From Spirochaetota bacterium (GTDB lineage: Bacteria > Spirochaetota > UBA4802 > UBA5550): DNA of 64,000 bases. Below the pieces are notes generated by a model. That model searched no databases and was not told the origin of the DNA. It saw nothing but the letters and a program-made list of their open reading frames with translations. The stretch lies in NCBI GenBank assembly GCA_041749375.1, contig JBGTBN010000035.1, forward strand, positions 7,016 to 71,015, read 5' to 3'. The position numbers and the translations under genes were made by a program. Position 1 is the stretch's first letter. Every line of letters begins with the position of its first letter. Positions 527-38,520 of this stretch are shown in pieces.

Positions 527-530
527 TTGA

Positions 531-556: not shown

Positions 557-562
557 GCAATA

Positions 563-6851: not shown

Positions 6852-6855
6852 CCGT

Positions 6856-7977: not shown

Positions 7978-8059
7978 GCTCCCCGGCGGCATTTCTCTCG
8001 ACAAACCGCTGCGCATAATGCACAATGTATAAGCCGGAAAACGAGAACGGAGATTTCGC

Positions 8060-9874: not shown

Positions 9875-9968
9875 CTGGTGCAGCGTCGGAATAATTAACT
9901 TCCGAACGATAAACGTTTTTTACATGCTTTAGCTGATCCCGGTAAAAAACAGAGGCAGGAGGGTCGAG

Positions 9969-10388: not shown

Positions 10389-10420
10389 GACCGGCATGAT
10401 TCCATTGGAGGACAGGGCAT

Positions 10421-10858
10421 ATGAATGCACCAGAAAATAATGCGGGACTGCGGATCCTCAGGGGAAGATACGGCGCGATATTCAGCGCGGTCATGAACGC
10501 AATAATTCCGCGGGGCGGCGCCTTCGGGCCGGGAGCGGCGGATTATGACCTCCTGCCGCTGGCGGATGAGATAGTGAAGAGCTATGACCCCGCCATCAGG
10601 AAGTTATTCCCGCTGGTTCTTGACTACGTGCAGTTCAGTGCCCTGCTCCGGAAGGGGAGGCTGTTTACCGGCCTGGACGAGCGAAAGGGGATGGAGTTCC
10701 TCGGCTCGATGGAGCGGAGCCCCTTCTTGTACCGGCGCATGTTCATCTTGCTGCTCAAGCTGGTCACCATGCTCGCGTTTTACGATAGCGATGAAACGGC
10801 GCGGTTTGCCGGTTATGAGCACGACTGGTGTCATTTAAAAAAAGGACAGGCATCATGA
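10421..10858 (+). CDS. Small accessory subunit-like protein of the GMC oxidoreductase (gluconate 2-dehydrogenase subunit 3-like)
   Basis: 145 aa. Its stop overlaps the GMC start (ATGA). Assignment rests on position and general resemblance only. Confidence 0.5.
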   Translation: MNAPENNAGLRILRGRYGAIFSAVMNAIIPRGGAFGPGAADYDLLPLADEIVKSYDPAIRKLFPLVLDYVQFSALLRKGRLFTGLDERKGMEFLGSMERSPFLYRRMFILLLKLVTMLAFYDSDETARFAGYEHDWCHLKKGQAS

Positions 10859-12372: not shown

Positions 12373-12389
12373 CGGCGGCTCCGGCACGG

Positions 12390-13223
12390 TCACCCGCCGT
12401 TCGTCCCGCCACCGGAAGTGCCCGGGTCATACTTGCCAAGGCATTCGGGGCACAGGCTGTGGGTGAATACCATGTCCTTGTTGTCGCGCAGGTACTCCTC
12501 TATGGAGGTCCATGAGTCCGGGTGGAAAGGCCGGCTGTTGTCAGTCCGGATTTTTTTGCAGCCGGCACATATGGGAAGCAGCCGCTCGATCTCGGCCAGA
12601 CGCGCTGCCGCAGTGCGGTACCGCCTCACCTGCTGTATAAACCCTGCGGTTATCCCGATCATGATCAACAGGATGGCTGATCCTGCGAGGATGCCCATGA
12701 CCTTCTGGTCCCCGTCCGCGTGCTTCTGAATGGCGAGAACCGACCGGTCAAGCGACTCCACCAGTGCTTCGTTGTGGGAAAGAACATACGCAAGCGAAGC
12801 ATCGTTTTTTCGATTGATATAACTGATGACGTTTTCCTCGAAATGCTCCCACTGGCGGACGGCGGCGTAAAGCAGCCGCCGGCTTCCCGGGTCGTCCATT
12901 TCCGGTACGTTGACGTATTCGGTTTGCTCCATGCCCAGCGGGATGGCCCCGCCTTCGGCAACGGCGTGTATCGCATCATTGAACACGGCGAGTGTCCTCT
13001 CCACCTCGCTTTTCTTAACCGCGCCGTCCCGGTACAGCAGCACGTATTTCGTTATTTTCTGGGAGAGCATGCGGAGCCGCCCGACGCTGTTGATGCGGGC
13101 ATTGTCGTTGATCTGCATCTCCACGTACTTGGGGATCATGAGTGATGCCAGCATGAGGGGGAGCAGGAGCGCTGCATATATTACATAAACAAGATACGGC
13201 TTTTTGCCGGCTGGTGTATTCAT
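12390..13223 (-). CDS. Two-TM sensor with a PilJ/NarX-type periplasmic domain and a C-terminal Cys4 zinc-ribbon-like tail
   Basis: INSVGRLRMLSQKITK is a PilJ-N type motif. A second TM helix is followed by ICAGCKKIRTD...WTSIEEYL...FTHSLCPEC. Confidence 0.75.
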   Translation of the reverse strand: MNTPAGKKPYLVYVIYAALLLPLMLASLMIPKYVEMQINDNARINSVGRLRMLSQKITKYVLLYRDGAVKKSEVERTLAVFNDAIHAVAEGGAIPLGMEQTEYVNVPEMDDPGSRRLLYAAVRQWEHFEENVISYINRKNDASLAYVLSHNEALVESLDRSVLAIQKHADGDQKVMGILAGSAILLIMIGITAGFIQQVRRYRTAAARLAEIERLLPICAGCKKIRTDNSRPFHPDSWTSIEEYLRDNKDMVFTHSLCPECLGKYDPGTSGGGTNGG

Positions 13224-16184: not shown

Positions 16185-16475
16185 ATGCAGGTGCTGAATG
16201 AATTTTCCAGCACGCTACGCAAGAAATTTAAGTTTGAATATGATATAATTGATTCCGCAGTTAAGGAACTTTCCGCAGGCTTCACTGTCGTACCGCAAAA
16301 CCTGCAGACAATATTTTCCGCATTCAGCATCGGGAATCGATACGGCTATTCCTATTATGACAGCCTCATTGTTGCCACGGCTCGTGAAAAGGGCTGCAAG
16401 GTCCTCTATTCCGAAGATCTGCAACACGGCCAGGTCATTGAAGATACGTTGACAATAATCAATCCATTTGCATGA
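16185..16475 (+). CDS. PIN-domain (VapC-like) toxin, N-terminus unresolved
   Basis: C-terminal PIN blocks YYDSLIVATAREKGCKVLYSEDLQHG. In-frame upstream codons (from 16080) encode VFFDTNIVLYLY, which includes the first catalytic Asp, but contain no ATG/GTG/TTG. Confidence 0.65.
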   Translation: MQVLNEFSSTLRKKFKFEYDIIDSAVKELSAGFTVVPQNLQTIFSAFSIGNRYGYSYYDSLIVATAREKGCKVLYSEDLQHGQVIEDTLTIINPFA

Positions 16476-16733: not shown

Positions 16734-16789
16734 AAAGCTGATTAATGATTAAAACGTTGTAATTGTTCAGTTTCATTCGGCGGGTCATA

Positions 16790-17338
16790 ATGCTGTTAAA
16801 AGGATGTCTCCACACTCATACCACCTGTTCCGACGGCAAGCTGACGCCCCAGGCGGTGGCGGAGGCTTACGAATCGAGGGGATATGACTTTGTAGCGTTC
16901 ACTGACCATGATTATCTGCTGAAGCCGAACTATCGCGAGCTGTACGATCAGGTCAAAACCGACATGATCATTTTCCACGGCATCGAGATAACGGCTTTCG
17001 TTCGGGGCTACATTCATGTGGGGAAGATCGAGGGGGACAGCGAGACGCTCCATATCTTCAACCACATCGGTGAATATGACATGACGCCGGAGCAGGTGCT
17101 GGAGCGGCTGGTGGATCTGGAGCAGATGTTTCCCCTGGACGCGGTGGAGATTACGACAAAGGGGTTCCGGGACACGCTGTTCGAGTCGCTGAACATCAAA
17201 TACCCGAAAATCGCATCCGATGACTCGCATACGCTCGTGGGCATCGGGCGGGCCTGGGTCGAGCTTGACGCGAAGCGGGAGAAGGATTCGATACTCAGGG
17301 CAATAAAGCATGGCTCGTTCTGGAACTGCTACGTGTGA
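16790..17338 (+). CDS. PHP-domain metal-dependent phosphoesterase
   Basis: LKGCLHTHTTCSDGKLTP..YDFVAFTDHDY are PHP His/Asp motifs. Confidence 0.75.
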   Translation: MLLKGCLHTHTTCSDGKLTPQAVAEAYESRGYDFVAFTDHDYLLKPNYRELYDQVKTDMIIFHGIEITAFVRGYIHVGKIEGDSETLHIFNHIGEYDMTPEQVLERLVDLEQMFPLDAVEITTKGFRDTLFESLNIKYPKIASDDSHTLVGIGRAWVELDAKREKDSILRAIKHGSFWNCYV

Positions 17339-17475
17339 TTGCGGGACCCGGGCGGAAAGCGGAAGATTCCCGCGCAGGAGTGCGCGGGGGCGAGGACTTA
17401 TAACAGATACGGTATACTAATTCAGGAGGCTTATAGTGATCCTTTATCTTTTCAGAATTTACAGGAGGATTGGTA

Positions 17476-18621
17476 ATGGGTAAAAGAATGGCGATCTGCG
17501 CCGTTGCGCAGATTAAGAACGATCCGGAATACAGGCATCTTCGTTTCCAGAACATGCTGCTTGAGTGCTTTGAGTCGATTATGGGCCAGACAAAGGTGAC
17601 CTTTGACATGGAGAAGGGCATCCGGACAATCATCACATGCTCGGATGACGTGTTCGACGCGCGGACCATATCCAACAACGGTATAACGGACGTCGTGGGA
17701 GCGCACTTCCGCGGTGAAGAGAAAATGGCGCAGGAGAGCATCAACGGCCTCGGCTACGGTATGGCATGCATACTCAGCGGGCATGATGATGTGATCCTGT
17801 TCATGGGTCACTGCAAGGAATCACAGGGAGAGAGCCGGCGGATGGCGACGAACCTTTCCTACGATCCGTTCTACAGCAGGCCTCTCGGGATGGATTTTCA
17901 GAACGTGGACGCCCTGCAGGCGCGGGCATACATGGAAAAATCGGGCGTTACCGACGAGCACCTCGCGAAAATAGTGGTCCGCTCCAGGAAGAACGCAGCG
18001 AAGAACCCCTACGCGCGGGAGAACAAGCTCGTCGACGAAAAAGAAGTCATGAATTCGCCGATGTACGCGGACCCGCTGCGCGAGCTCCACGTGTACCCGG
18101 TCACCGACTGGGCGTACGGGATGCTCCTCTGCTGCGAAGAACGGGCGAAAGAGTTCACGAAAAACCCTGTGTGGATCACCGGGTACGGCAGCTGCATGGA
18201 CCGCTATTTCCTCGGCGATCGTGACCTCTCATCGAACTTCTCGCTTAAAAACGCCGCCAAGCGGGCATATGATAAGGCCGGCGTCAGGGACCCGAAGAAA
18301 GACGTCCAGCTCTTCGAACTGAGCGACCACGCGGCGCACCAGCTCCCCATGTGGGCTGAAGGCGTCGGCATCGCCGACGAGGGCAAGGGCGGAAAATGGA
18401 TCGACGACGGCGGCATGGACAAGTTCAGCGTGAACCTGTCGGGCGGCCAGCTCAACGGCAACCCGCTCCTGCTCGGGGGCGCGGCACGGGCCATTGAGTG
18501 CTACTACCAACTGACGGGCCAGGCAGGCGAGCGCCAGGTCAAGGGAGCCAAGCGGGCCGTGGCCCAGGCGGCCACCGGCGGCGCGGGCCAGCACCAGGCC
18601 GTGATAGTAATGGAAGCGTAG
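17476..18621 (+). CDS. Thiolase-fold protein, alpha-type, degenerate catalytic motifs
   Basis: AGGAGG SD. SCPx-thiolase-like overall (GHCKES, NLSGGQL), but the nucleophile loop reads KMAQESING and the His motif reads GNPLLLGG. Confidence 0.85.
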   Translation: MGKRMAICAVAQIKNDPEYRHLRFQNMLLECFESIMGQTKVTFDMEKGIRTIITCSDDVFDARTISNNGITDVVGAHFRGEEKMAQESINGLGYGMACILSGHDDVILFMGHCKESQGESRRMATNLSYDPFYSRPLGMDFQNVDALQARAYMEKSGVTDEHLAKIVVRSRKNAAKNPYARENKLVDEKEVMNSPMYADPLRELHVYPVTDWAYGMLLCCEERAKEFTKNPVWITGYGSCMDRYFLGDRDLSSNFSLKNAAKRAYDKAGVRDPKKDVQLFELSDHAAHQLPMWAEGVGIADEGKGGKWIDDGGMDKFSVNLSGGQLNGNPLLLGGAARAIECYYQLTGQAGERQVKGAKRAVAQAATGGAGQHQAVIVMEA

Positions 18622-18633
18622 GGAGGTGAAATA

Positions 18634-19830
18634 ATGGCACATAAAAAAAACAGAAACGTGGGCATAATAGGCATCGGGCAGACGAAGCATTCCAGCCACC
18701 GCGAGGATGTGAACCAGCCTGAAATGATACATGAAGCGGTCAGCCTGGCGCTGAAGGACGCGAACCTGACAATGAATGACATCGACTGCGTCGTTCACGG
18801 CAACATGGAGCTCTTCGAGATGGTGCACCAGCCGGACATGTGGCACGTGCTCGGCACCGGTGCCTACGGCAAGGATTGCATAAGGATCACCACCGGCGGC
18901 ACAGTCGGCGCGACCCTTTCATGCGCGTCGGACAACCTGGTGGCCTCGGGAATGTATGACATCGTCATGGCCATCGGGTTCGAGAAACTGCAGGAGGGGC
19001 ATACCACTGCCGGCATCACAAACATGGCGGATCCACTCTGGTTCCGCAAGATACAGGCTGGAGCCCTGACCGGTTCCAGCGCATATGATGTCGAGCGGGA
19101 ATTTGGACTCGAGCGGGCCAACCGGGCGTCGCTGACGTACCGGATTATCATGGACAAGCACGCCGGGCTCAATCCCAACGCGCACCGGGCGTTCGGACTT
19201 GAATTCAGCCAGATCGACGATCTCATCAAGAGCTCTCCGAAGCTCGTCGGCGAGCTGAAGCTCATTGAAATGTGCTCCCAGTCGGACGGCGCATGCTGCG
19301 TAATTTACGCCTGCGAAAAAAAGGCAAAAGAGATGTCCAAAAACCCGGTCTGGATACGGGACCATATCACCGCGCACAAGGAAGAGACCTTTACCATATT
19401 CGGATACAACAGGGAATTCCCTGTCATGAAGACGCACAAGTTCGCGGCGGAACAGCTCTTCAGGCGGAATGACATCAAGGACCCGCTGAATTATTTTGAC
19501 GTGTTCGAGATGTACGATCCTGCATCATGGTGGGCAATCGACTGGCTCAGGGACTTCTTCGACATGAAGGGCGATGAGCACCTCAAGCTCATCGAGGAGA
19601 AGGAGATCATGATCGGCGGGAAGATGCCAATCAACCCGTCGGGCGGTGTTATCGGGTCGAACCCGATCGGCGCGACAGCGCTGATACGGGTGGCCGAGGC
19701 TGCGCTCCAGGTGCGCGGCAACGCAGGCGGCCACCAGATCCCGACCCCGGTCAATCATGCGCTGGCCTCGGGCTTCGGCGGTACCATGTGGACGGTAATG
19801 ACGATGCTTGAGAAGGAACTTAACTGGTAG
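18634..19830 (+). CDS. Thiolase-fold protein, beta-type, degenerate catalytic motifs
   Basis: RITTGGTVGATL replaces the CxSG loop. AIGFEK is present. NPSGGVIGSNPIGATA has Asn in place of His. Confidence 0.85.
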   Translation: MAHKKNRNVGIIGIGQTKHSSHREDVNQPEMIHEAVSLALKDANLTMNDIDCVVHGNMELFEMVHQPDMWHVLGTGAYGKDCIRITTGGTVGATLSCASDNLVASGMYDIVMAIGFEKLQEGHTTAGITNMADPLWFRKIQAGALTGSSAYDVEREFGLERANRASLTYRIIMDKHAGLNPNAHRAFGLEFSQIDDLIKSSPKLVGELKLIEMCSQSDGACCVIYACEKKAKEMSKNPVWIRDHITAHKEETFTIFGYNREFPVMKTHKFAAEQLFRRNDIKDPLNYFDVFEMYDPASWWAIDWLRDFFDMKGDEHLKLIEEKEIMIGGKMPINPSGGVIGSNPIGATALIRVAEAALQVRGNAGGHQIPTPVNHALASGFGGTMWTVMTMLEKELNW

Positions 19831-19840
19831 GAGGACAATC

Positions 19841-21031
19841 ATGGCAGAATACTGGGGAATAAAAGTAGAAGATATATTCAACACGATGAAAGACCGTTTC
19901 CGTCCCGATGGAGCCAAGGGAGTCGATGCCGTTTTCGGATATGACATCAAGGACGAGGGGAAGTGGAAACTGACTGTAAACAATAATGTGATGAAAATCG
20001 AGAAGACCGACGACCTGTCGAATTGCGTGTCTGTCATGAAGGCGGACGGTGAGACCTTTGTCGGAGTGAACACCGGCAAGGTCGATGCGACGAACGCCTT
20101 CATGGGCGGCAAGGTCAAGGTCGACGGCGACATGGCCGCCTTCGGGAAGACCGGCAAGCTCTTTCGCAAGTTCGTCATCGCGAAAAAAGAAATGTCTACG
20201 AAGGAATATCTCGTTGATATGTTCGCGACGGTGGTTCCGCGCTTTAAGGCCGGCGAGTCGGAAGGTGTTGACGCTTCCTTCGCGTTCGATCTCGGCGGAC
20301 CGGACGGCGGTAAGTGGACCGTCTTCATCAGGAATAAGGAATGTTCGGTCACGGAAACGATCGAGGGGAAACCGAGCGTGACTCTCGAATTCAACGATGC
20401 CAAGGACTATGTCGATTTCATCCTTGGAAAAATCGACGCGCAGAGCCTGCTCGCGGCCGGTAGGGCCTCGGCCAAGGGCGACATCAACATGATGCAGACG
20501 AAATGGCCGGTCCTCTTCGATAAGTACAAGGACCCGGTTGGAAGCAGCGTTCCGGAGCAGGAACTCCTGGTACTTAAGAAGACGATATCGGTAAACCAGA
20601 AGTACGCAACCGGCCCCGTCATGGGCAAATTTCTCAAGGGGCTGAAGGATAAAAAGATATTCGGGAACAAATGTACCAAGTGCGGACGCATTCAGCTGCC
20701 CCCGCGGGAAGTATGCGCAGAGTGCCGCGTGCGTGCGGGTGATTTTCTGGAGGTTGGACCCAAGGGCGAGGTCCGCTACATGGACATTGTCTATTACGCC
20801 ATGCCCGACCCGCTGACAGGCATTGCGCGCGAAACCCCGTACGGCGGGATCAACGTCCTGCTCGACGGCTGCAAAGGAAATGAAACACTGCCGCATTTCA
20901 TACGGAGGGATCAGATAGAAAAGATCCAGATGGGCTGGAATGAAAAGAAGGGAACGCGCGTCCGTCCCGTGTGGGAGGAAAACCGGATCGGCGATATCTG
21001 GGACATCAAATACTTCGAGATCGATGAGTAA
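19841..21031 (+). CDS. SCP2-SCP2-DUF35 fusion protein
   Basis: GGAGG SD. Two SCP2-like repeats (..NAFMGGKVKVDGDMAAFGK.. and ..LLAAGRASAKGDINMM..), then a Zn ribbon CTKCGRIQLPPREVCAEC and an OB-fold ending DIKYFEIDE. Confidence 0.85.
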   Translation: MAEYWGIKVEDIFNTMKDRFRPDGAKGVDAVFGYDIKDEGKWKLTVNNNVMKIEKTDDLSNCVSVMKADGETFVGVNTGKVDATNAFMGGKVKVDGDMAAFGKTGKLFRKFVIAKKEMSTKEYLVDMFATVVPRFKAGESEGVDASFAFDLGGPDGGKWTVFIRNKECSVTETIEGKPSVTLEFNDAKDYVDFILGKIDAQSLLAAGRASAKGDINMMQTKWPVLFDKYKDPVGSSVPEQELLVLKKTISVNQKYATGPVMGKFLKGLKDKKIFGNKCTKCGRIQLPPREVCAECRVRAGDFLEVGPKGEVRYMDIVYYAMPDPLTGIARETPYGGINVLLDGCKGNETLPHFIRRDQIEKIQMGWNEKKGTRVRPVWEENRIGDIWDIKYFEIDE

Positions 21032-21042
21032 GGAGCAGGGAT

Positions 21043-22470
21043 ATGACAACAAAGCAGATGAAAGGATTTGAAGACAGCTATGTCGTTGAAGGTAAGATGG
21101 CGCTCCCTTATTCTTACTTCGCCGGGCGTGTCGGCAGCAAGTTTATTACGACGATCCGGGACCAGAAGAAGATCATGGGAGTGAAGTGTCCGACCTGCGG
21201 CATTGTCTACCTGCCCCCGCGGCAGGTGTGCGACAAGGACTTCACCGACATCCGTGATAACTGGGTGGATGTCGGCACGGAAGGGAAGGTGACAAATTTC
21301 ACGGTGGTGCGGTACGACGACAAGCACCTGCCGCGGAAGGCGCCCTTCGTGCTGGCGCTGATCAAGCTGGAAGGGGCGGACACGCCCTTCATGCATATCG
21401 TCGAGGAGTGCCCGATCGAGAACGTGAAGATCGGGATGAAGGTCGAGGCCGTGTTCGCCGAGAAAACGACGAGCACCATCCTTGACATAGATCATTTCAA
21501 GCCCGCGGCCGCGACGCTTTCGGTCCACGAGCGCAACAAGGCAAGGAAACAATGGGTTCCGTCAGACGAGCCCGAAACTCAAGAAAAACGGAAAGGGGGG
21601 AAACCTGACATGTCAAAACCAGCAATTCTCACTGCAGCGCTGACAGGCGCCGCCACAATGAAGAACCAGAATCCGAACGTGCCGTATACGCCCGCCGAGT
21701 TTGCGGAAGAAGCGTACAAGTGCTACAAGGCCGGAGCGGCCATGGTGCACGTGCATGCCCGCATGGACAACGGGTTCGCGACCCACGAGCATGACCGAAT
21801 CCGCGAGACCCATGACGCCATCAAGCAGAAGTGCCCCGAGCTGATCGTGAACCTGAGCTCGGCGGTCGGTATGGGCAAGACGGCGGAACAGCGGATTTCG
21901 CAGATCGTGGCGATCAAGCCGGAGATGGCGTCCCTCAACACCAACACCATGAACTTCAGCATCATCGACCGGAAGACCGGTAAGATATTCATAGACTTCG
22001 TGTTCGAGAACACCTTCACCATGCTGCAGGATTTCGGCAAGGCCATGGAAGAGAACGGCGTAAAGCCCGAGATTGAAGTGTACGACATGGGCGGCCTCGA
22101 CAATACCATGCTGATGGCCAAACAGGGCTTCTTTACCGATCCGATGAACTTCAACTTCGTGTGGGGCGTTGCCGGCGGACAGGCGTTCAGGGCGGATGCC
22201 TTCATAGCCCTGATGAACGCGATCCCAGCGAAAGCAAACTTCACCACCTGCGGCGTTGGCAGCGACGAGTTCCCGGCCATCATGCAGTCCTGTCTCCTGG
22301 GCGGTCACATGAGGGTCGGCCTCGAGGACAACATCCGCATGCCGAACGGCGAGCTGGCCAAGGGAAGCTACGAGCTCGTTGAAGTGGCCGCACGGATGTG
22401 CGAATGCCTCGGCCGGCCGATTGCAACGCCGGATGAAGCGCGCGCGATAATGGGTCTTAAGAAGAAGTAA
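21043..22470 (+). CDS. DUF35-BKACE (beta-keto acid cleavage enzyme, DUF849) fusion protein
   Basis: N-terminal CPTCGIVYLPPRQVC plus an OB-fold ending DIDHFKP. About 40-aa linker. BKACE blocks PAILTAALTGA and AAMVHVHARMDNG follow. Confidence 0.85.
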   Translation: MTTKQMKGFEDSYVVEGKMALPYSYFAGRVGSKFITTIRDQKKIMGVKCPTCGIVYLPPRQVCDKDFTDIRDNWVDVGTEGKVTNFTVVRYDDKHLPRKAPFVLALIKLEGADTPFMHIVEECPIENVKIGMKVEAVFAEKTTSTILDIDHFKPAAATLSVHERNKARKQWVPSDEPETQEKRKGGKPDMSKPAILTAALTGAATMKNQNPNVPYTPAEFAEEAYKCYKAGAAMVHVHARMDNGFATHEHDRIRETHDAIKQKCPELIVNLSSAVGMGKTAEQRISQIVAIKPEMASLNTNTMNFSIIDRKTGKIFIDFVFENTFTMLQDFGKAMEENGVKPEIEVYDMGGLDNTMLMAKQGFFTDPMNFNFVWGVAGGQAFRADAFIALMNAIPAKANFTTCGVGSDEFPAIMQSCLLGGHMRVGLEDNIRMPNGELAKGSYELVEVAARMCECLGRPIATPDEARAIMGLKKK

Positions 22471-22580
22471 CCTCACCCCCCGGCCCCCCTCTCCCCACAG
22501 AAGAGGGGGAGTATAAGAGGGGGCTCCGTCCCGAAGAAACCCTCTCCCATGGGGAGAGGGTGCGCGGAGCGCGGGTGAGG
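22471..22580. repeat. C/G-rich nested-hairpin intergenic repeat
   Basis: Outer arms CCTCACCC (22471-78) and GGGTGAGG (22573-80). Inner hairpin CCCTCTCCC-atg-GGGAGAGGG (22540-22560). Confidence 0.6.
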
Positions 22581-22605
22581 TCATCGATAGTAAGGAGTAT
22601 GTTCA

Positions 22606-25424: not shown

Positions 25425-26420
25425 ATGAACAAGGCAGTTGAATTGAAACAGGGACAGAACGAGCTTTTTGCCGATCCCGATGCCGACAGGGCCAGGGAGT
25501 TTTTCAGGCACAAGTCCCGCGCCATGGTGAACAAGGTCACCACCGCGCAGGAAGCGGTAAAGAACCTACTCCATGACGGCGATTACCTCGCGATCGGCGG
25601 ATTCGGGGCAAACAGGATACCCACGGCGATCTTGCACGAGATCGTTCGCCAGAAAAAGAAAAACCTGGCCTTCGCGGGCCATACGGCAACGCATGACATG
25701 CAGATCCTGATAGCGGGGGAATGCATCGATCGGCTGGACATAGCCTACATCATCGGCCTCGAGGCGCGGGGCCTTTCACCCAGCTCGCGCCGTGCTGTCG
25801 AGAGCGGTAAAATCAAGCTGACGGAATGGACCAACGCGACGCTGTCATGGCGGATCAAGGCGGCGGCCATGGGCCTCTCCTTCCTGCCGGCGCGGAACAT
25901 CCTCGGCACCGATACCTTCAAGTACAGCGCGGACAAGGAGATCCTCTGTCCCTTCACCGGGCAGAAGTATGTGGCGCATCCGGCGCTCTACCCGGATTTT
26001 GCCGCCATTCACGTGCACGAGTGCGACGTCTACGGGAACGCGCACGTGTACGGCGCCTCGGTGTCCGACCAGGACCTGGCCAAGGCGTCCAGGCGGGTGG
26101 TCCTCACCACCGAGAAGCTCATCCCGAACGAGGAGATCAGGCGCCAGCCGCATGCGACCTTTATTCCCTTCTGGTGCGTCGACGCGGTCGTCGAGGTGCC
26201 CTACGGCAGCTACCCGGGCAACATGCCCTACGAGTATTTCTCGGACGAGGAATACCTGAAGCAGTGGCTGAACATCGAGAAGGACCCGGCGGAATTTGAA
26301 AAATTCTTCAAGAAGCAGGTGCTGGACACGAAAAATTTCAACGAATACCTGGAGCTGAACGGCGGCATTGAGAAGATCCTCAAGCTGCGCGCCATCGAGC
26401 ACCTGATTGACAAGAAATAA
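25425..26420 (+). CDS. Family I CoA-transferase, subunit A (glutaconate CoA-transferase-like)
   Basis: DGDYLAIGGFGANRIPTAILHEI..LAFAGHT is a typical alpha-subunit N-terminal region. Confidence 0.85.
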   Translation: MNKAVELKQGQNELFADPDADRAREFFRHKSRAMVNKVTTAQEAVKNLLHDGDYLAIGGFGANRIPTAILHEIVRQKKKNLAFAGHTATHDMQILIAGECIDRLDIAYIIGLEARGLSPSSRRAVESGKIKLTEWTNATLSWRIKAAAMGLSFLPARNILGTDTFKYSADKEILCPFTGQKYVAHPALYPDFAAIHVHECDVYGNAHVYGASVSDQDLAKASRRVVLTTEKLIPNEEIRRQPHATFIPFWCVDAVVEVPYGSYPGNMPYEYFSDEEYLKQWLNIEKDPAEFEKFFKKQVLDTKNFNEYLELNGGIEKILKLRAIEHLIDKK

Positions 26421-26431
26421 GGAGGAGAGAA

Positions 26432-27202
26432 ATGGCAGACTACAATCCGATGGAATTAATGATATGCGTTGCCGCGCGCAATCTCGAGGACGGGGCCACC
26501 GTCGTCGTGGGCACCGGCGCGCCCTGCGCGGCCGCCATGCTCGCGCAGAAAACGCACTCACCCAACCTCACGATCATGTTCGAGGCGGGCGGCGTCGCGC
26601 CGATCCTCCCCTCGATGCCGATATCGGTGGGCGATTCGCGGACCTTTCACCGCGCGATCCTGGCCAGCTCCATGCCCGACATCATGGAGACCTGCCAGCG
26701 CGGGATGGTGGACTATACCTTCCTGGGCGGCGCGCAGATCGACATGTACGGGAACATCAACTCGACCATGATCGGCGACGACCACGCGAAGCCCAAGGTC
26801 CGCTTCCCGGGATCGGGCGGGGCGAACGACCTGGCGAGCCTCTGCTGGCGGACGATGATGATGACGCCGCAGGACGCGAAGCGTTTCACGGAAAAGATCA
26901 ACTTCATCACCTCGCCTGGCTACCTGCAGGGCGGCAACTCCCGCTACGAGGCGGGCCTGCCCAAGGGCACCGGCCCCTACAGGATCATCACCAACATGGC
27001 GATCATGGGTTTCGACGAGGAGACCAAGTGGATGAAGGTGCTGAACGTTAACCCGGGCTACAGCCGGAAGGACATACAGGACAACTGCGGGTTCGAGTTG
27101 AAGTGGGCGGAAAAGCTTGTCGATACCGATCCCCCGCACGCGGACGAGCTGCGGATCCTCCGCGAAGAGGTAGACCCGCACCGGTATATCATAGGGAGAT
27201 AG
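26432..27202 (+). CDS. Family I CoA-transferase, subunit B
   Basis: VVVGTGAPCAAAMLAQ..IMFEAGGV has Glu where the catalytic Glu of the ESG/SENG motif is expected. GSGGANDL is also present. Confidence 0.85.
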   Translation: MADYNPMELMICVAARNLEDGATVVVGTGAPCAAAMLAQKTHSPNLTIMFEAGGVAPILPSMPISVGDSRTFHRAILASSMPDIMETCQRGMVDYTFLGGAQIDMYGNINSTMIGDDHAKPKVRFPGSGGANDLASLCWRTMMMTPQDAKRFTEKINFITSPGYLQGGNSRYEAGLPKGTGPYRIITNMAIMGFDEETKWMKVLNVNPGYSRKDIQDNCGFELKWAEKLVDTDPPHADELRILREEVDPHRYIIGR

Positions 27203-27292
27203 GCCCCGGCCCCCGCCCATCCTCCCCCGAACGCGGGGGAGGTGGCCGCAGGCCGGAGGCGGGATGAGGTAATATTACAAAGGAGAGCAATC

Positions 27293-27757
27293 ATGGCCGA
27301 TCAATTCAAAGGCATTGAACCGATGGTGTATAATAGCAAGATAAACGTACCCTATTCATGGTGGGCCGGTGATACCGCCTCCAGGTTCTTTATCTCGCTC
27401 AGGGATGAGAAGAAAATCATCGCCACCCGATGCGGAACGTGCAAGAAAACGTTTCTTCCGCCCCGGAAGTCGTGCCCGACCTGCTTCACCGAGAACACGG
27501 AATGGGTGAATGTTTCCGATGAGGGGACGGTGCTTGCCTTTACGGTGGCGCGCCGCCAGTTCGCGTCGATCCCCGGCGATAAAAAGGTCCCGGTCATATG
27601 GGCGCTGATCAAGCTAGAGGGAGCTGACACGGCCCTGCTTCATTACCTTGACGAAGTGAAGCCGGAAGACGTAAAAATCGGCATGCGCGTGAAAGCGGTC
27701 TTCCCAGAAGAGCGGAAGGCCACCATCCGCGACATCTCGCATTTCAAACCGGTGTAA
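27293..27757 (+). CDS. DUF35 Zn-ribbon/OB-fold protein
   Basis: AGGAGA SD. CGTCKKTFLPPRKSCPTC, and an OB-fold ending RDISHFKPV. Confidence 0.85.
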   Translation: MADQFKGIEPMVYNSKINVPYSWWAGDTASRFFISLRDEKKIIATRCGTCKKTFLPPRKSCPTCFTENTEWVNVSDEGTVLAFTVARRQFASIPGDKKVPVIWALIKLEGADTALLHYLDEVKPEDVKIGMRVKAVFPEERKATIRDISHFKPV

Positions 27758-27760
27758 AGA

Positions 27761-27904
27761 GCGTGTCCCGTAACGGGACGCGCTCGCTGCGGTACAGGAA
27801 GTACCGCCATTTTCCGAAGCAGTGCTGAGGAAAATGAAGGCTTTCGGGAGCTTTGCTTTCGAAAGCCGTTATCCCAAAACTACATGGATGTAGGTTTTGG
27901 GATA
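27761..27904 (+). other. Array of five consecutive stem-loops in the DUF35/thiolase intergenic region
   Basis: Stems at 27761-83, 27789-807, 27808-36, 27839-67 and 27870-904, the last with 16-nt arms. The array ends 8 nt before the AAGGAG SD of ORF 27926. Confidence 0.55.
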
Positions 27905-27925
27905 TAAATGACAAGGAGCGCAGAT

Positions 27926-29071
27926 ATGGACAGAGCAGCGATAATCGGCGTCGGAATGACGAAGATAGAGAAGAACAAGGTACGGGACACCTTTGCCGAC
28001 ATGGCATGGGAGGCCGTGAACAAGGCCCTTGACGATGCGGGCATGACCATCGACGACATCGACAATGTCGTCACCACGTCGAGCGACTTCTGGGACGGCA
28101 GGACTATCTCCTGCATGGCCGTGGGAGACGCCAGCGGCGCAGCGCACAAGAACGTTTCCTGCGTCGAGGGTGACGGCACCTACGGCGCTTTTTACGGCAT
28201 GACAAGGAGCCTTTCGGGCTCGTACAAGACGACCCTGGTGACGGGCCATTCCAAGGGCTCGCAGAGCGTGTCGAGCCTCATCACCAACTCTGCCTTTGAT
28301 CCGATCTACGAGCGGGGACTGGGCATGGACATGGTCACCGCGTGCGCGATGCAGGCGAACGCGTACATGCACCGTACCGGGACAACGCCGGAGCAGATGG
28401 CGATGGTGTCGGTGAAGAACCACGGCAATGCGCTGAAGAACCCGCTTGCCCAGCTCCCCATGAAGCTCACCGTCAGCGATGTGCTGAAATCCGAGATGAT
28501 TGCGGACCCGCTCCACAAGCTGGACTGCTCGCCCGTGTCGGATGGGTGCGCGGCGGTCATCATAGCGCACGAATCGGTTGCATCGAAGTTCAAACAGAAA
28601 CCGGTCTGGCTGAAGGGAGTCTCCTTCTGTGCCGACAGCTTTTTCTTCGGCGACCGGGACATCTCCCGCGCGAAATCGCTCACCGAGGCGGCGAAGAAAG
28701 CGTACGCCATGGCGGGGATAACGGACCCGAAAAAAGAGATCGATGTGGCGGAAGTATACGATGCCTTCACGTACCAGGAGCTCATGTGGCTCGAGGAGAT
28801 GGGGCTCGCGGACGACGCCACCGCCGGAAAGCTGCTCGAGAAGGGCGAATTCAACATGGACGGCAGGCTGCCGGTGAACGCGTCCGGGGGACTTCTCTCC
28901 GGGCACCCGGTCATAGCCGCCGGCCTCTACGGCATGGCGGCGGTTGCCCGGCAGATCCGGGGCGACGCGGGCGGCTTCCAGGTCATAAAGGCGAAGACTG
29001 GCCTGGTCCACGGCGTGAACGGCCTTGGCGGCCAGTCGCACTGCGTGTGGATTATGGGCAAGGACAAGTAG
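27926..29071 (+). CDS. Thiolase-fold protein, alpha-type, retains a Cys loop and the GHP motif
   Basis: AAGGAG SD. NVSCVEGDG, GHSKGS and NASGGLLSGHPVIAAG. Confidence 0.85.
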   Translation: MDRAAIIGVGMTKIEKNKVRDTFADMAWEAVNKALDDAGMTIDDIDNVVTTSSDFWDGRTISCMAVGDASGAAHKNVSCVEGDGTYGAFYGMTRSLSGSYKTTLVTGHSKGSQSVSSLITNSAFDPIYERGLGMDMVTACAMQANAYMHRTGTTPEQMAMVSVKNHGNALKNPLAQLPMKLTVSDVLKSEMIADPLHKLDCSPVSDGCAAVIIAHESVASKFKQKPVWLKGVSFCADSFFFGDRDISRAKSLTEAAKKAYAMAGITDPKKEIDVAEVYDAFTYQELMWLEEMGLADDATAGKLLEKGEFNMDGRLPVNASGGLLSGHPVIAAGLYGMAAVARQIRGDAGGFQVIKAKTGLVHGVNGLGGQSHCVWIMGKDK

Positions 29072-29081
29072 GAGGAATATC

Positions 29082-30239
29082 ATGGCCAAACGAGTTGCAA
29101 TAGTAGGAACGGGACAGACCTTCCATAAAAGCCATCGCCCCGACGTGAACGGCCAGGAGCTGATCAACGAGGCCGTCATGCGGGCCCTTCAGGATGCCGA
29201 CCTGAAGATGAAGGACATTGACGCGATCGTCATCGGCAACATGGACCATTTCGAGGGGATCAACTATGTCGACTGCTGGAGCGTTGACGGCTCGGGCGGG
29301 ACGATGAAGCCGATCATAAAGCTGACAACGGGCGGTACGACAGGGTGCACCGTGGCGATTGGCGGATACCACCTGGTCGGCTCCGGCATGTTCGACCGGG
29401 TGCTGATAATCGGGTGGGAGAAAAACTCCGAGTCCGACACCACGGGAGCAATCACCACGGCTTTCGATCCGATATGGGACCGCCAGGTGTTCGCCGGTGC
29501 GATCTCCGGCCTTGCGGCCGAGGCGCAGGCATACATAGCGCGGTACGGCGCGACCGACCGGGACGGCGCCCGGGTCTCGGTGCGCGACCGGAAGCACGCG
29601 ATGAACAACCCGCACGCGCAGCTCCGCAAGGAAGTCACCCTCGAGGAGGTGCTCGCTTCCCCGATGCTGGCCGACCCGATACACCTGCTGGACGTCTGTC
29701 CCCGGACCGACGGGGCCTGTGCAGTGATCATGGCGAGCGAAGACGTCGCGGAGAAGATCTGCCCCAAGCCGGACTGGATATGGGGGACGGCGGTGCGGCA
29801 CAGTTACTCGTACCTGGGCGACGCGGATTACGGCCGCCTCACCAGCATGCGCGAGGGATCGCAGGAGATGTTCAAGAAGGCGGGCATCAGGGAGCCGCGC
29901 AAGGAGCTTGACGTGATCGAGCTGTACCAGCCCTATTCGTTCGGCGGGCTCATATGGATCGAGGACATGGGGGTCGTGGGTCCGGGCGAGGCGCCGCAGT
30001 ACATCTGGGACGGCAATACCGACATGGGCGGCGAACTCCCCATCAACCCGTCGGGCGGGGTCATCGCGACCAACCCGATCGGTGCGACCGGGCTTATCCG
30101 CTGCGCGGAAGCGGCGATGCAGGTGATGGGCAAGGCGGAAGGCCGCCAGGTCCCGGACGTTAATTTCGCGTTCAGTAGCGGCTTCGGCGGGTGCTGGTGG
30201 ACGGACATGATTCTGCACGGCAAGAAAAAGCCGAACTGA
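29082..30239 (+). CDS. Thiolase-fold protein, beta-type, degenerate catalytic motifs
   Basis: AGGAGG SD. KLTTGGTTGCTV, IIGWEK, and NPSGGVIATNPIGATG with Asn in place of His. Confidence 0.85.
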   Translation: MAKRVAIVGTGQTFHKSHRPDVNGQELINEAVMRALQDADLKMKDIDAIVIGNMDHFEGINYVDCWSVDGSGGTMKPIIKLTTGGTTGCTVAIGGYHLVGSGMFDRVLIIGWEKNSESDTTGAITTAFDPIWDRQVFAGAISGLAAEAQAYIARYGATDRDGARVSVRDRKHAMNNPHAQLRKEVTLEEVLASPMLADPIHLLDVCPRTDGACAVIMASEDVAEKICPKPDWIWGTAVRHSYSYLGDADYGRLTSMREGSQEMFKKAGIREPRKELDVIELYQPYSFGGLIWIEDMGVVGPGEAPQYIWDGNTDMGGELPINPSGGVIATNPIGATGLIRCAEAAMQVMGKAEGRQVPDVNFAFSSGFGGCWWTDMILHGKKKPN

Positions 30240-30255
30240 CAACAGGAGGACGACA

Positions 30256-30720
30256 ATGGCCGAAAAGGACAACATAATCATCGAATCGGGTGATGCCGTG
30301 CAGCCCTTCAAGTATGCGGTCGGCATGTACGGAAGCAGGTTTTTCACCGAGTTGCGGGACAACCGGCGTATCATGGCGGTGAAATGCCCGAAGTGCAAGA
30401 AGGTCTATATCCCGCCGCGCGGCGTGTGCGGAGAGTGTTTCGTGGAGATGAACGACTGGGTCGAGGTGGGGCCGAAGGGAGTCATCGGGACCTTCACCAT
30501 CCTCCGGTTCGCGTTCATCGACCCGGAGACGGGCCACCAGAAGCCGGTGCCTTACGGCTATGGTTTCATCAAGCTCGACGGCGCGGATACGCTGTTCCAG
30601 CATTACATCAGCGTCGAGGACGAGAAGAAGATCAGGGTGGGCGCCCGCGTGGAGCCGGTTTTTTCGAAGGAGAGAAAAGGGAGCATACGTGACATCGAAT
30701 ACTTCAAAGTCATAGACTGA
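30256..30720 (+). CDS. DUF35 Zn-ribbon/OB-fold protein
   Basis: CPKCKKVYIPPRGVCGEC, and an OB-fold ending RDIEYFKVID. Confidence 0.85.
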   Translation: MAEKDNIIIESGDAVQPFKYAVGMYGSRFFTELRDNRRIMAVKCPKCKKVYIPPRGVCGECFVEMNDWVEVGPKGVIGTFTILRFAFIDPETGHQKPVPYGYGFIKLDGADTLFQHYISVEDEKKIRVGARVEPVFSKERKGSIRDIEYFKVID

Positions 30721-38429: not shown

Positions 38430-38520
38430 CCTCGCAAACGTTTGCGGGGTTATCGGTCGGAATGTTATCGCGAACGGAGCGCCGTCCTGATAGGTCCGCA
38501 AGCGCTTGCGGACCTATCAG
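38430..38520. repeat. Two palindromic hairpins of the AAACGTTT / ATAGGTCCGC family
   Basis: CCTCGCAAACGTTTGCGGGG (38430-49), and a perfect 34-nt palindrome CTGATAGGTCCGCAAGCGCTTGCGGACCTATCAG (38487-520). Confidence 0.75.

Follow-up and report, generated by a model that had tools for sequence, protein, structure and literature searches.

DUF35 domains serve as adaptors in the archaeal mevalonate pathway and an archaeal fatty-acid synthase, in the cleavage of steroid side chains, and in BbsAB and PhlACB. [quoted passage not shown] The question is raised by a gene in a 64,000-nucleotide stretch of Spirochaetota DNA, the whole of which we refer to as the window (Table 1). The preliminary description of this locus had placed a DUF35 joined to a full BKACE domain in this one frame, and both the ORF and the Pfam matches confirm it; the product is identical to the protein P0001. 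The Shine-Dalgarno (SD) sequence of the full-length start lies 11 nt beyond the stop of the upstream SCP2-DUF35 gene. The OB-fold of the fused DUF35 ends, as described earlier, in ...DIDHFKP154, and the two stand-alone paralogues in the window end where the OB-fold ends (27242..27757 with ...DISHFKPV and 30256..30720 with ...DIEYFKVID before their stop codons). Split orthologues of the fused DUF35 stop at the OB-fold end too, after ...DHFEP(V/L/A).

Table 1. Features of the fusion gene and its neighbourhood (window coordinates)
Feature	Position	Strand	Basis or remark
Small PHP-domain protein, first gene of the module	16763..17338	+	Pfam PHP/PHP_C
thl1, non-canonical thiolase-fold protein, predicted docking partner	17470..18621	+	Pfam Thiolase_C_1, synteny
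thl2, non-canonical thiolase-fold protein, predicted docking partner	18634..19830	+	SCP2-thiolase alignment, synteny
SCP2-SCP2-DUF35, first DUF35 subunit of the module, with lipid-binding domains	19808..21031	+	Pfam SCP2 (two stretches) and zf-ChsH2
Shine-Dalgarno AAGGAG of the full-length start	21030..21035	+	7 nt 5' of ATG 21043, from sequence
DUF35-linker-BKACE fusion gene	21043..22470	+	Single uninterrupted ORF, 475 aa
Rubredoxin-like zinc ribbon, C49 C52 C63 D66	21160..21240	+	Pfam zf-ChsH2
OB-fold of the DUF35 module, residues 74-154	21262..21504	+	Pfam OB_ChsH2_C
Charged linker, residues 155-189, 35 aa	21505..21609	+	Predicted disordered, pLDDT <55
Internal SD-like core GGGGGG	21595..21600	+	9 nt 5' of the internal ATG
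Internal ATG, Met190	21610..21612	+	Start codon inherited from the stand-alone BKACE gene
BKACE TIM-barrel domain, residues 190-475	21610..22467	+	Pfam, Kce alignment, Foldseek
Class I CoA-transferase, subunits A (25425-26420) and B (26432-27202)	25425..27202	+	Pfam CoA_trans
Second set: DUF35b, thl3, thl4, DUF35c	27242..30720	+	Pfam, ORFs, alignments, synteny

In the N-terminal half, the OB-fold matches OB_ChsH2_C over residues 74-138 (E 2.6e-13; 50.1 bits, above the gathering score of 27.1) and is modelled by AlphaFold with a pLDDT of about 80-90; the zf-ChsH2 match to the ribbon (residues 40-65, E 3.4e-4, 20.8 bits) stays below its 23.2-bit gathering score. The ribbon has three Cys, as had been noted, and reads C49-P-T-C52 ... 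C63-D-K-D66; it is not a canonical four-Cys ribbon, the fourth ligand position being Asp66. The DUF35 protein SSO2064 binds zinc by Cys49/52/63/66 (PMC2954200). We considered and rejected decay of the ribbon, since Asp is kept without exception at this ligand position wherever Cys is absent, and is shared by the split orthologue: of 82 family members, 65 have Asp as residue 66 and the other 17 have Cys. Foldseek matches the module to 6esq_E, 6ok1_B, 7pyt_A and 9myr_B (target TM-scores 0.62-0.70), and by sequence the closest solved DUF35 proteins are SSO2064 (3irb; E 8e-11) and 6esq_E (E 2e-10). The nearest solved relatives are DUF35 subunits of thiolase-fold complexes, in agreement with the earlier assignment of this half to the thiolase-docking type.

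The C-terminal half is an equally clear match to its family: the Pfam BKACE profile (PF05853/DUF849) aligns along its full length (profile positions 2-274 of 274 with residues 194-472; E 2e-93, and 313.2 bits where the cutoff is 24.8), which bears out the BKACE assignment. The barrel is modelled with a pLDDT of 85-94, and resembles the Kce structures 2y7d in sequence (E 4e-52) and 2y7e_A in fold (Foldseek E 1e-26, target TM-score 0.90). Residues H236, H238, E345, R424, E428, and D429 align with Kce H46, H48, E143, R226, E230, and D231, among which we take H46, H48, and E230 to be the zinc ligands and E143, R226, and D231 to be catalytic; the aligned residues are invariant across 55 fused sequences. 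By this alignment, the BKACE half keeps all predicted zinc ligands (H236, H238, E428) and the predicted catalytic E345, R424, and D429. A true Kce of lysine fermentation was rejected, since the domain scores 275.9 bits against the cutoff of 382 for the Kce equivalog (NCBIfam NF052387), Ala204 replaces the Glu of the Kce “TGAE” motif (which presumably contacts the substrate amino group), and the locus has no lysine-fermentation neighbours.

That the domain falls below the curated cutoffs of all four characterised NCBIfam BKACE equivalogs, and has, around residues 300-325, a conserved hairpin of about 11 residues that Kce lacks, might suggest a BKACE fold with another kind of chemistry, for instance a decarboxylase or hydrolase reaction; proteins of this fold that are not BKACEs are known (PMC4922564; 5zmu), including the “not BKACE” groups G6/G7 and cis-epoxysuccinate hydrolase. 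We regard this as very improbable, given that the zinc-binding and catalytic residues are all invariant here, while one or more catalytic residues are missing from G7 proteins; that Kce is by far the best match (the hydrolase reaches only E 1.6e-23); and that a CoA-transferase able to take acetoacetate is conserved downstream. BKACE15, a zinc-containing homotetramer, converts a beta-keto acid and acetyl-CoA into an acyl-CoA and acetoacetate, and is inhibited by acetoacetate with an IC50 of 1.45 mM (PMC11961710). The cleavage had been called “CoA-independent” in the preliminary description, which holds with respect to free CoA only, as acetyl-CoA is needed as co-substrate.

The ORF arose in evolution by a true fusion of two genes that are neighbours in a conserved module of six. 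We found the same open fusion in 57 species-representative assemblies (Spirochaetota and Smithella/Syntrophales), and a search for the domain architecture returned about 85 protein clusters (90% identity) of about 475 aa with PF01796+PF05853; the fused loci share descent, so that such counts overstate their independence, yet the species differ and the rest of the linker has diverged. Truly split forms exist as well: in L001 and some 15 further loci, the same module has separate DUF35 and BKACE genes, in this order and 7-177 nt apart. The split DUF35 resembles the fused N-terminus in its C..C..C..D ribbon, and the two share 66% identity. Since the split halves are adjacent in the same module, the DUF35 of the fusion is the second of the module's own DUF35 subunits; its orthologue is a stand-alone DUF35 gene found in every case beside a thiolase-fold pair.

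The source contig is metagenome-assembled, and one related contig has a frame break (between P0276 and P0277), so one could ask if the fusion arose by assembly or sequencing error, with a stop codon or frameshift between two genes lost. This is hardly credible, and we rejected it: the assemblies are concordant, come from many studies, and share with the protein clusters an open linker of 32-40 codons (an open frame was the criterion for calling a locus fused, so the openness of the linker in frame 0 is partly circular and was discounted); the only broken relative is interrupted inside the BKACE barrel, away from the fusion junction; and the split forms differ, in that a stop comes right after DHFEPx and is followed by an untranslated, usually short spacer. 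In a neighbour-joining tree, the fused loci L035, L052, and L054 fall outside the main fused clade, so that one fusion event and re-splitting are both possible. No distant or independent fusions were seen among the best 150 matches in a 50%-identity representative library, in which the fused family is apparently represented by a shorter member.

Both halves of the fusion are intact and under purifying selection. The linker between them is a poorly conserved tether, flexible and disordered by prediction: its mean pairwise identity is 21%, versus 74% and 80% in the flanking domains. The charged linker noted earlier is thus present, although at 35 aa it is slightly shorter than the ~40 aa first given, and its length stays within 32-40 codons across all fused loci.

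The gene order of the module (PHP, thl1, thl2, SCP2-DUF35, DUF35, BKACE) is conserved in essentially all loci, with permutations in L073, L078, and L081; the PHP gene lies upstream of thl1 in nearly all related loci with enough upstream sequence. The start of SCP2-DUF35 is probably the ATG near 19841. The “thiolase-fold pair” that had been reported next door is indeed a pair of thiolase folds adjacent to the fusion, but the canonical Cys is absent from both, and His is mostly missing: thl1 has Ser in the nucleophile column, and its His is mostly replaced by Asn, and thl2 has Gly for Cys and Asn for His (66-100% identity over 65 loci). Motifs without variation in thl1/thl2 are KESQxESR and HGNMELFEM/MCSQSDG. 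Lacking the canonical catalytic Cys, thl1 and thl2 may, as far as their sequences go, not be thiolases at all. Their relatives in the PDB include the DUF35-binding proteins 6esq_A, 7pxp_C, 6ok1_A, and 9myr_A, as well as PhlC; Ltp2 and Sal are distant matches only. In all loci, the fused or split DUF35 adjoins a thiolase-superfamily gene. In the Chloroflexota locus L064, however, the DUF35 and BKACE genes adjoin a thl3/thl4-type pair, which makes the assignment of thl1/thl2 as partner uncertain.

Downstream of the fusion, the CoA-transferase genes show weak, sub-cutoff similarity to 3-oxoacid CoA-transferase A/B; they are present in most fused and split loci and absent, for example, from L010, L016, L066, and L067. 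We consider them a candidate for an acetoacetate-activating step; in the synthetic CORE cycle, acetoacetate is cleared by a CoA-transferase and then a thiolase (PMC11961710). In the second set of DUF35 and thiolase-fold genes, thl3 retains the His, and the window as a whole encodes five thiolase-fold proteins and five DUF35 modules. Other neighbours encode an enoyl-CoA hydratase, an acyl-CoA synthetase, and an acyl-CoA dehydrogenase. We found no MaoC domain in the 20 ORFs scanned between 16763 and 40427 of the window, and the scanned window ORFs included no HMG-CoA synthase gene. None of the module's genes fits a curated NCBIfam equivalog, which leaves the pathway role of the module conjectural. 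A strongly structured 120-nt hairpin, which is not a repeat within the window, lies downstream.

The preliminary description had also pointed to an internal SD-like sequence and an ATG at 21610. Both are present, and the comparative nucleotide signal is strong: about 55 of 58 fused genes (related by descent, as noted above) have a GGAGG-type core 6-11 nt before Met190. In the comparison with background the count is 54 of 57 genes, while such a core precedes 3.2% of the other in-frame ATGs and occurs in 4.1% of linker windows. A purine-rich linker as the cause of the core was rejected on the linker's own background (4.1% of windows versus about 95% of genes). The core is encoded in two codon registers, GGA-GGN (Gly-Gly) or AGG-AGG (Arg-Arg), and in both the synonymous codons are skewed: Gly codons are GGA/GGG in 86% of cases at the core vs 39% elsewhere, and Arg codons are AGR in 97% vs 35% elsewhere. 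Relative to the ATG, G is found at -15 and -11 in about 100% of the genes, position -13 is never C or T, and -10 is free to vary. Codon 190 is ATG in 56 of the 58 fused loci (CTG in L028 and L045), and stand-alone BKACEs, 284-289 aa long, begin at the position matching Met190. This conserved internal start suggests that the same gene may also yield free BKACE.

Other features of the same site would fit a gene that makes the full-length product only, with the core a relic of the ancestral intergenic region or a pause that lets DUF35 fold first. Met190 is replaced by non-start codons in two proteins (Tyr in P0052, Ser in P0081), three fused genes lack the core at the usual distance, the two CTG loci have no ATG, and in the window's clade the core and the ATG are 9-10 nt apart, toward the upper end of SD spacings. 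We think a full-length product alone unlikely, though it deserves serious weight. In a linker of 21% identity, G at -15, G at -11, and the ATG are 97-100% conserved; the synonymous codons are strongly skewed to the core; and the core persists through the change of register from Gly-Gly to Arg-Arg. A neutral remnant should have decayed, and a pause has no need for a start codon at SD spacing. Since Met190 is lost or the core absent in some fusions, internal initiation is dispensable in some lineages.

How might the parts work together? From sequence comparison we infer docking, channelling, a type of substrate, and two protein products. The fused DUF35 would dock on the adjacent thl1/thl2, as in Shy-Sal and ChsH2-Ltp2, and so tether BKACE to the complex, while SCP2-DUF35 probably sits on the other protomer; Shy binds the aldolase Sal through its N-terminal DUF35 alone (PMC11321319). 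BKACE would then convert a beta-keto acid (probably hydrophobic, and certainly not a lysine intermediate) and acetyl-CoA into an acyl-CoA two carbons shorter and acetoacetate. The acetoacetate, an inhibitor of BKACE, would be removed, and acetyl-CoA regenerated, by the CoA-transferase and thiolase-fold set of the operon. From the same mRNA, the internal SD and ATG would give, beside the full-length protein of 53 kDa, an untethered BKACE of 286 aa and 31 kDa, which may occupy the remaining positions of the homotetramer, so that the tetramer and docking stoichiometries are both satisfied; the internal start would thus offer a possible means of squaring a homotetrameric enzyme with the stoichiometry of docking.

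The DUF35 could instead serve BKACE itself, delivering acyl-CoA or lipid non-covalently and without docking on a thiolase fold, along the lines of the family proposal of 2010, in which DUF35 binds and delivers acyl-CoA (PMC2954200). BKACE does consume acetyl-CoA and release an acyl-CoA, and the neighbouring SCP2-DUF35 points to lipid handling. We nonetheless judge delivery improbable: in every solved DUF35 complex the domain is bound to a thiolase-fold dimer, the DUF35 domains of Shy and ChsH2 are dispensable for catalysis and are docking elements (PMC11321319), the split orthologue is a separate subunit, and the ratio of thiolase-fold proteins to DUF35 in the module is 1:1. With docking as the preferred role, we hold the account as a whole (a recurrent fusion under purifying selection, with the internal-start and docking model) to be rather probable. 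A bolder reading, which we put forward tentatively and as a possibility on the doubtful side, is that the module is an unrecognised multi-enzyme machine of anaerobic lipid or hydrocarbon degraders, combining a Cys-less thiolase-fold pair, an SCP2 arm, and a tethered BKACE in a new C-C cleavage cycle, and that the fused gene is a one-mRNA, two-product device setting the ratio of tethered to free BKACE. If true, acetyl-CoA replaces free CoA as acyl acceptor, and acetoacetate replaces acetyl-CoA as the two-carbon product.

The module has no curated name and is shared by syntrophs, sulfate reducers, and digester spirochaetes (more than 70 species-level genomes), hosts that drive anaerobic lipid and hydrocarbon turnover. 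Its fused and split forms are an argument of the Rosetta-stone type for BKACE working together with a thiolase-fold complex, and turn the unannotated operon into a testable biochemical hypothesis; by comparison among genomes, the internal SD in two codon registers is a clear mark of translation starting inside a fused bacterial gene. The suggestion that the coupling of DUF35 and BKACE had not been described agrees with our literature search, which turned up no paper pairing the two. Searches on DUF35/BKACE, on Smithella, Syntrophus, and alkanes, and on long-chain fatty acids gave no description of the fusion or the module; the NetSyn study of BKACE contexts makes no mention of DUF35 or thiolase, and a paper on methanogenic limonene degradation was not relevant. 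BKACE is not among the fusion partners listed for DUF35 (PMC2954200). What is new here is the partner enzyme and the module, since docking of an enzyme-fused DUF35 on a thiolase fold is already established (PMC11321319); DUF35 is emerging as a general adaptor that joins thiolase-fold enzymes to their pathway neighbours, with BKACE as an added class of partner.

Several known systems share parts of this arrangement. Kce and the BKACE domain share their fold, their catalytic Glu, Arg, and Asp, and an H-x-H...E zinc site, but Kce has neither DUF35 nor the extra hairpin, and its lysine-fermentation neighbours are missing from the fusion locus. A precedent for a fused BKACE is the 3-aminobutyryl-CoA ammonia-lyase/Kce protein (NCBIfam NF052389; P0165, of 434 aa, has this layout), in which another protein from the pathway is joined to the N-terminus of BKACE; unlike a non-catalytic docking module, this partner is a lyase that acts catalytically on what BKACE produces. 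In the archaeal acetoacetyl-CoA thiolase/HMG-CoA synthase/DUF35 complex (6esq, 6et9), DUF35 scaffolds two CoA-dependent C-C bond enzymes; it is a free subunit there, the second enzyme is HMG-CoA synthase, and the thiolase is catalytically canonical. The 2,4-diacetylphloroglucinol acetyltransferase PhlACB (5m3k) has two different thiolase-fold proteins and a DUF35 in one operon, without BKACE, SCP2 domain, or fusion; PhlC, which presumably retains the nucleophilic Cys, is a weak match to thl1 and thl2. One thiolase-fold protein of PhlACB is described as inactive, and PhlC as catalytically active (PMC2954200).

The closest parallels are of the ChsH2-Ltp2/Shy-Sal type, and the locus has their gene layout, with a catalytic domain and DUF35 in one polypeptide and a nucleophile-less thiolase-fold partner adjacent; the fused enzyme is a BKACE, however, not a MaoC hydratase in a steroid hydratase/retro-aldolase system. 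In the actinobacterial steroid side-chain hydratase/aldolase ChsH1-ChsH2-Ltp2 (6ok1), an enzyme-fused DUF35 docks at the periphery of a Cys-less thiolase-fold dimer and couples two consecutive steps, but the DUF35 of ChsH2 is C-terminal to MaoC, and the steps are hydration and then retro-aldol cleavage, not beta-keto-acid cleavage. Shy-Sal, the bile-acid side-chain hydratase/aldolase of Comamonas testosteroni (9myr), shares with the fusion an N-terminal DUF35 and a C-terminal catalytic domain, and its DUF35 docks on a thiolase-fold partner that is encoded next door and does not act as a thiolase (PMC11321319). In Shy the fused enzyme is a MaoC hydratase and the partner a homodimer; in the fusion described here, which lacks steroid genes nearby, the enzyme is a zinc TIM-barrel BKACE, the predicted partner is made up of two distinct thiolase-fold proteins, and the system adds a second DUF35 carrier (SCP2-DUF35), a conserved internal start, and anaerobic hosts.

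We identified a single open frame encoding a protein of 475 aa, in which an N-terminal DUF35 module is joined by a charged linker to a complete BKACE (DUF849) domain (see the table). The preliminary description had reported a DUF35 module with a three-Cys ribbon, a BKACE domain, and an internal Shine-Dalgarno (SD)-like stretch followed by an ATG, and all of these were confirmed in place, with the C-terminal half matching the BKACE profile over its full length; the charged linker leading into BKACE also stands, but its length had been overestimated (~40 aa, measured as 35 aa). The OB-fold of the fusion ends at ...DIDHFKP154, and both stand-alone DUF35 paralogues in the window terminate at this point.

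Features of the fusion gene and its surroundings in the window
Feature	Position	Strand	Remarks
Truncated PIN-domain ORF	16185-16475	+	just upstream of the module
PHP-domain protein	16763-17338	+	191 aa
thl1, thiolase-fold gene	17470-18621
thl2, thiolase-fold gene	18634-19830
SD site of the fusion's 5' start	21030-21035		AAGGAG
Fusion gene	21043-22470	+	475 aa
zf-ChsH2 ribbon	residues 40-65		Pfam E 3.4e-4, 20.8 bits; below gathering score 23.2
Ribbon motif (sequence)	residues 49-66		C49-P-T-C52...C63-D-K-D66
OB_ChsH2_C	residues 74-138		Pfam E 2.6e-13
Charged linker	residues 155-189		35 aa, between OB-fold and Met190
Met190 codon	21610-21612		GGGGGG upstream at 21595-21600
BKACE domain, complete	residues 194-472		Pfam E 2e-93, profile positions 2-274 of 274
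Longer BKACE hairpin	residues ~300-325 (21940-22017)		NTMNFSIIDRKTGKIFIDFVFENTF
G+C-rich spacer	22471-22590	+	120 nt, nested hairpins
Stand-alone DUF35	27242-27757		C-terminus ...DISHFKPV, then stop
thl3, thiolase-fold gene	27908-29071
thl4, thiolase-fold gene	29025-30239
Stand-alone DUF35	30256-30720		C-terminus ...DIEYFKVID, then stop
thl5, thiolase-fold gene	36389-37825
Fifth DUF35, cryptic	37839-38429	+	196 aa; no Pfam match; CxxC...CxxC
Palindrome, three copies	38480-38521, 46601-46642, 520-561		GATAGGTCCGCAAnCGnTTGCGGACCTATC
FliF flagellar M-ring gene	46824-48524	+	further downstream of the module

A protein search for the DUF35+BKACE architecture (PF01796+PF05853), which the preliminary description had proposed, returned an identical protein (P0001) and ~85 clusters at the 90% identity level, ~475 aa long and with identity down to 68%. 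When one genome per species was scanned with the two halves (tblastn), 57 of the 80 loci were fused; their hosts are Spirochaetota/Leptospirales-like MAGs and Smithella/Syntrophaceae/Syntrophales MAGs, and the window shares 95-96% identity with two Spirochaetota loci (L004 and L005). Because 57 assemblies from many studies are concordant, it is very unlikely that a stop or frameshift separates the two domains, and the fusion of module subunits is very probably genuine. In one case (P0276/P0277, on an ENA contig of 40,493 bp), annotation splits a sequence >90% identical to the fused protein P0050 into proteins of 312 aa and 149 aa; the frame break lies inside the BKACE barrel (~residues 312-326), away from the domain junction, and probably reflects a frameshift in sequencing or a pseudogene. 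Among the best 150 matches in a representative library at 50% identity, we found no second, more distant DUF35-BKACE family; this library also holds three proteins of ~740 aa (P0149, P0151, and P0264) with an N-terminal BKACE followed by ~460 further residues, and one of 434 aa (P0165) with BKACE at the C-terminus, as in the lyase-Kce fusion (Kce is the BKACE-family enzyme of lysine fermentation).

The two parts also occur as separate genes. For example, at the related locus L001 (on a 490-kb contig) two thiolase-like genes are followed by SCP2-DUF35, a DUF35 gene (155 aa; 66% identical to the N-terminal module of the fusion, with the same C..C..C..D ribbon), a 25-nt gap containing a clean AGGAGG, and BKACE (288 aa); this split arrangement is shared by about 16 loci, their DUF35 ending in ...DHFEP(V/L/A) and the stop, with a gap of 7-177 nt to the BKACE ATG. 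Mapping the window's neighbor genes onto all loci revealed the order PHP, thl1, thl2, SCP2-DUF35, DUF35(-)BKACE in essentially all fused and split loci with sufficient upstream sequence, usually followed by (enoyl-CoA hydratase), acyl-CoA synthetase, CoA-transferase A/B, DUF35b, thl3, thl4, DUF35c, an unknown ORF, TetR, and acyl-CoA dehydrogenases; three Desulfobacterium/Desulfobacula MAGs (L073, L078, and L081) have the permuted order BKACE, PHP, thl1, thl2, SCP2-DUF35, DUF35. The split loci and the shared synteny thus indicate that the fused DUF35 is not an additional domain but corresponds to the second DUF35 subunit belonging to the module itself. No module gene reached a curated NCBIfam equivalog cutoff. 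The PHP-domain protein, whose similarity to CehA/McbA-type metallohydrolases is weak and sub-threshold, appears to be part of the module, because its gene lies ahead of thl1 in almost every related locus with sufficient upstream sequence; the protein could be a hydrolase generating the free acid. Thiolase-fold proteins and DUF35 modules number five each in the window; the gene for the cryptic fifth DUF35 (BLASTP E 5e-8 against the one at 30256-30720) follows the fifth thiolase-fold gene, and the 1:1 ratio would be compatible with each thiolase-fold protomer having one DUF35. A Chloroflexota MAG (L064, ~6500-13000) has the order DUF35, thl3-like, thl4-like, DUF35, BKACE, CoA-transferase, so BKACE can associate with the other type of thiolase-fold pair.

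The DUF35 half matches 3irb (E 8e-11) and 6esq_E (E 2e-10) in sequence, and in fold the DUF35 chains of 6esq, 6ok1 (Ltp2-ChsH2), 7pyt (BbsAB), and 9myr (Sal-Shy), which are all of the solved DUF35/thiolase-fold complexes. The zinc ligands of SSO2064 are Cys49/52/63/66 (PMC2954200). Positions 49, 52, and 63 are Cys in 82 out of 82 family members, while 65 have Asp at position 66 and the other 17 have Cys; since no other residue is found there, the loss of the fourth Cys is a conserved Cys-to-Asp ligand swap rather than decay, and the Cys3-Asp ribbon may bind zinc. The linker is 32-40 codons long in all fused loci, with a mean pairwise identity of 21% (74% for ribbon plus OB-fold, and 80% for BKACE); with pLDDT <55 in the AlphaFold model, it looks like a flexible tether.

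Stand-alone BKACEs start at the position of Met190, and the DNA preceding this codon in the fused genes takes two forms, AAAGGAGGAAAACCNGAT-ATG (coding K-G-G-K-P-D) and GAAAGGAGGAAAGCN-ATG (coding E-R-R-K-A), retaining the GGAGG core in two codon registers despite the different encoded amino acids. Although the loci behind these counts share ancestry, a core (GGAGG, GGGGG, or AGGAG) lies between -17 and -5 in 54 of 57 fused genes, compared to 3.2% of other in-frame ATGs and 2.7% of arbitrary positions; with the linker itself also taken as background, being purine-rich, the core is 6-11 nt from the ATG in ~55 of 58 genes versus 4.1% of linker windows. Codons at the internal SD are skewed toward the core, GGA/GGG making up 86% of Gly codons (39% elsewhere) and AGA/AGG 97% of Arg codons (35% elsewhere). 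C and T never occur at position -13, the wobble base of the first Gly codon; position -10, the wobble base of the second Gly codon, lies immediately beyond the core, varies freely, and acts as an internal control. Of 58 loci, 56 have ATG as the internal start codon; a few fusions carry Tyr or Ser (P0052 and P0081) or CTG (L028 and L045) at position 190, and in three fused genes an SD core is missing from the usual distance. SD sites are in use in both host groups, as seen at the split BKACE genes and at the fusion's 5' start. Core retention, codon skew, and the conserved ATG together are strong comparative evidence of selection on a functional internal ribosome-binding site, and, judging from the sequences, a free 286-aa BKACE is probably made alongside the 475-aa form.

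The best solved relative of the BKACE half is Kce (2y7d, E 4e-52). Kce residues H46, H48, E143, R226, E230, and D231 (chain numbering of the alignment minus a 6-residue tag) align with H236, H238, E345, R424, E428, and D429 of the fusion, which are invariant in 55 fused sequences; the Kce residues are said to have been described by Bellinzoni et al. in 2011 as the zinc ligands and the catalytic Glu. BKACE15 is a homotetramer with one zinc per active site and a catalytic Glu (PMC11961710). The AlphaFold model (55-sequence alignment; mean pLDDT 77) has a confident barrel, with a TM-score of 0.90 to Kce. We rejected Kce itself as the function of this half: the NCBIfam score of 275.9 bits falls short of the equivalog cutoff of 382, Ala204 replaces the ‘TGAE’ Glu, and there are no lysine-fermentation neighbors; the fusion also scores below the NCBIfam cutoffs for the 3-oxoadipate and 3,5-dioxohexanoate enzymes. 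The SCP2 domains and the adjoining FadD-like acyl-CoA synthetase hint at a hydrophobic substrate. One hairpin, ~11 residues longer than that of Kce, has strongly conserved flanks and a tip of low pLDDT, and may be a lid or specificity element; the Archaeoglobus structure 3lot has a longer insertion at the same place.

Among the PDB relatives of thl1 and thl2 are the DUF35 binders 6esq_A, BbsB (7pxp_C), Ltp2 (6ok1_A), Sal (9myr_A), and PhlC. Aligned to SCP2-thiolase, thl2 has Gly at the nucleophilic Cys and Asn at the His; in an alignment of the five paralogues, the nucleophile column holds Ser in thl1 and Gly in thl2 to thl5, the canonical Cys being present in none of the five and the His kept only by thl3 and thl5. 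Since thl1 and thl2 are highly conserved across >60 species-level loci (56-100% identity for thl1, 66-100% for thl2) with invariant motifs of their own (KESQxESR and DPFYxR in thl1; HGNMELFEM, TTGGTxG, MCSQSDG, and NPIGATA in thl2), they look like functional, non-canonical proteins and not decaying pseudoenzymes. Their sequences suggest a chemistry other than that of thiolase, and in this they would resemble Ltp2 and Sal, which are repurposed thiolase folds.

In a neighbor-joining tree of the BKACE domain, most fused loci form one clade mixing Spirochaetota and Syntrophales; three fused loci fall outside it, so the fusion need not have had a single origin. Spirochaetota and Smithella/Syntrophales fused genes (L004-L067) interleave in the tree at 80-84% identity with the whole operon syntenic, which implies that the operon was transferred between phyla, among anaerobic-digester and sediment bacteria.

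The G+C-rich spacer that separates the fusion gene from the enoyl-CoA hydratase gene folds at -69.5 kcal/mol (z = -4.4; none of 200 shuffles is as good), has no second copy within the window, and may be a processing, attenuation, or stabilizer element. The ~30-nt palindrome (repeat family D5) might represent a REP-like element, or else a terminator or operator that is shared. The listed TTG/GTG starts of the ORFs at 19808, 27242, 29025, and 17470 are probably too early, with downstream ATGs at ~19841, 27290, 29082, and 17476, respectively; those at ~19841 and 29082 lie ~10 nt past the preceding gene's stop, and this placement fits tight translational coupling along the operon.

The mechanism that we favor, with moderate confidence, is that the docked DUF35 module would hold BKACE at thl1/thl2 on a flexible tether, where BKACE would convert a beta-keto acid and acetyl-CoA to an acyl-CoA and acetoacetate. 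Docking on the thl1/thl2 pair specifically seems reasonably likely by analogy with ChsH2-Ltp2 and with Shy, in which an N-terminal DUF35 precedes a C-terminal MaoC and the DUF35 alone binds Sal in a 2:2 complex (PMC11321319). Tethered and free subunits from one mRNA could reconcile a BKACE homotetramer with a fixed DUF35/thiolase-dimer stoichiometry. BKACE15 is inhibited by acetoacetate (IC50 1.45 mM), and in the synthetic CORE cycle the removal of acetoacetate by a CoA-transferase followed by a thiolase regenerates the acetyl-CoA co-substrate (PMC11961710); more tentatively, the operon's CoA-transferase and further thiolase-fold sets could likewise clear acetoacetate.

Literature searches on the DUF35-BKACE pairing and on related organisms and pathways turned up no account of either the fusion or the module. 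The six-gene module with its Cys-less thiolase-fold pair and SCP2-DUF35, the Cys3-Asp ribbon variant, and the nucleotide-level conservation of the internal start all appear to be new. In ChsH2 and Shy, a DUF35 fused to an enzyme is an established means of docking on a thiolase-fold partner (PMC11321319), and fusion of BKACE to a pathway neighbor is already known from the lyase-Kce fusion (NF052389); BKACE as a DUF35 partner, without mention among the fusion partners in PMC2954200, appears to be new.
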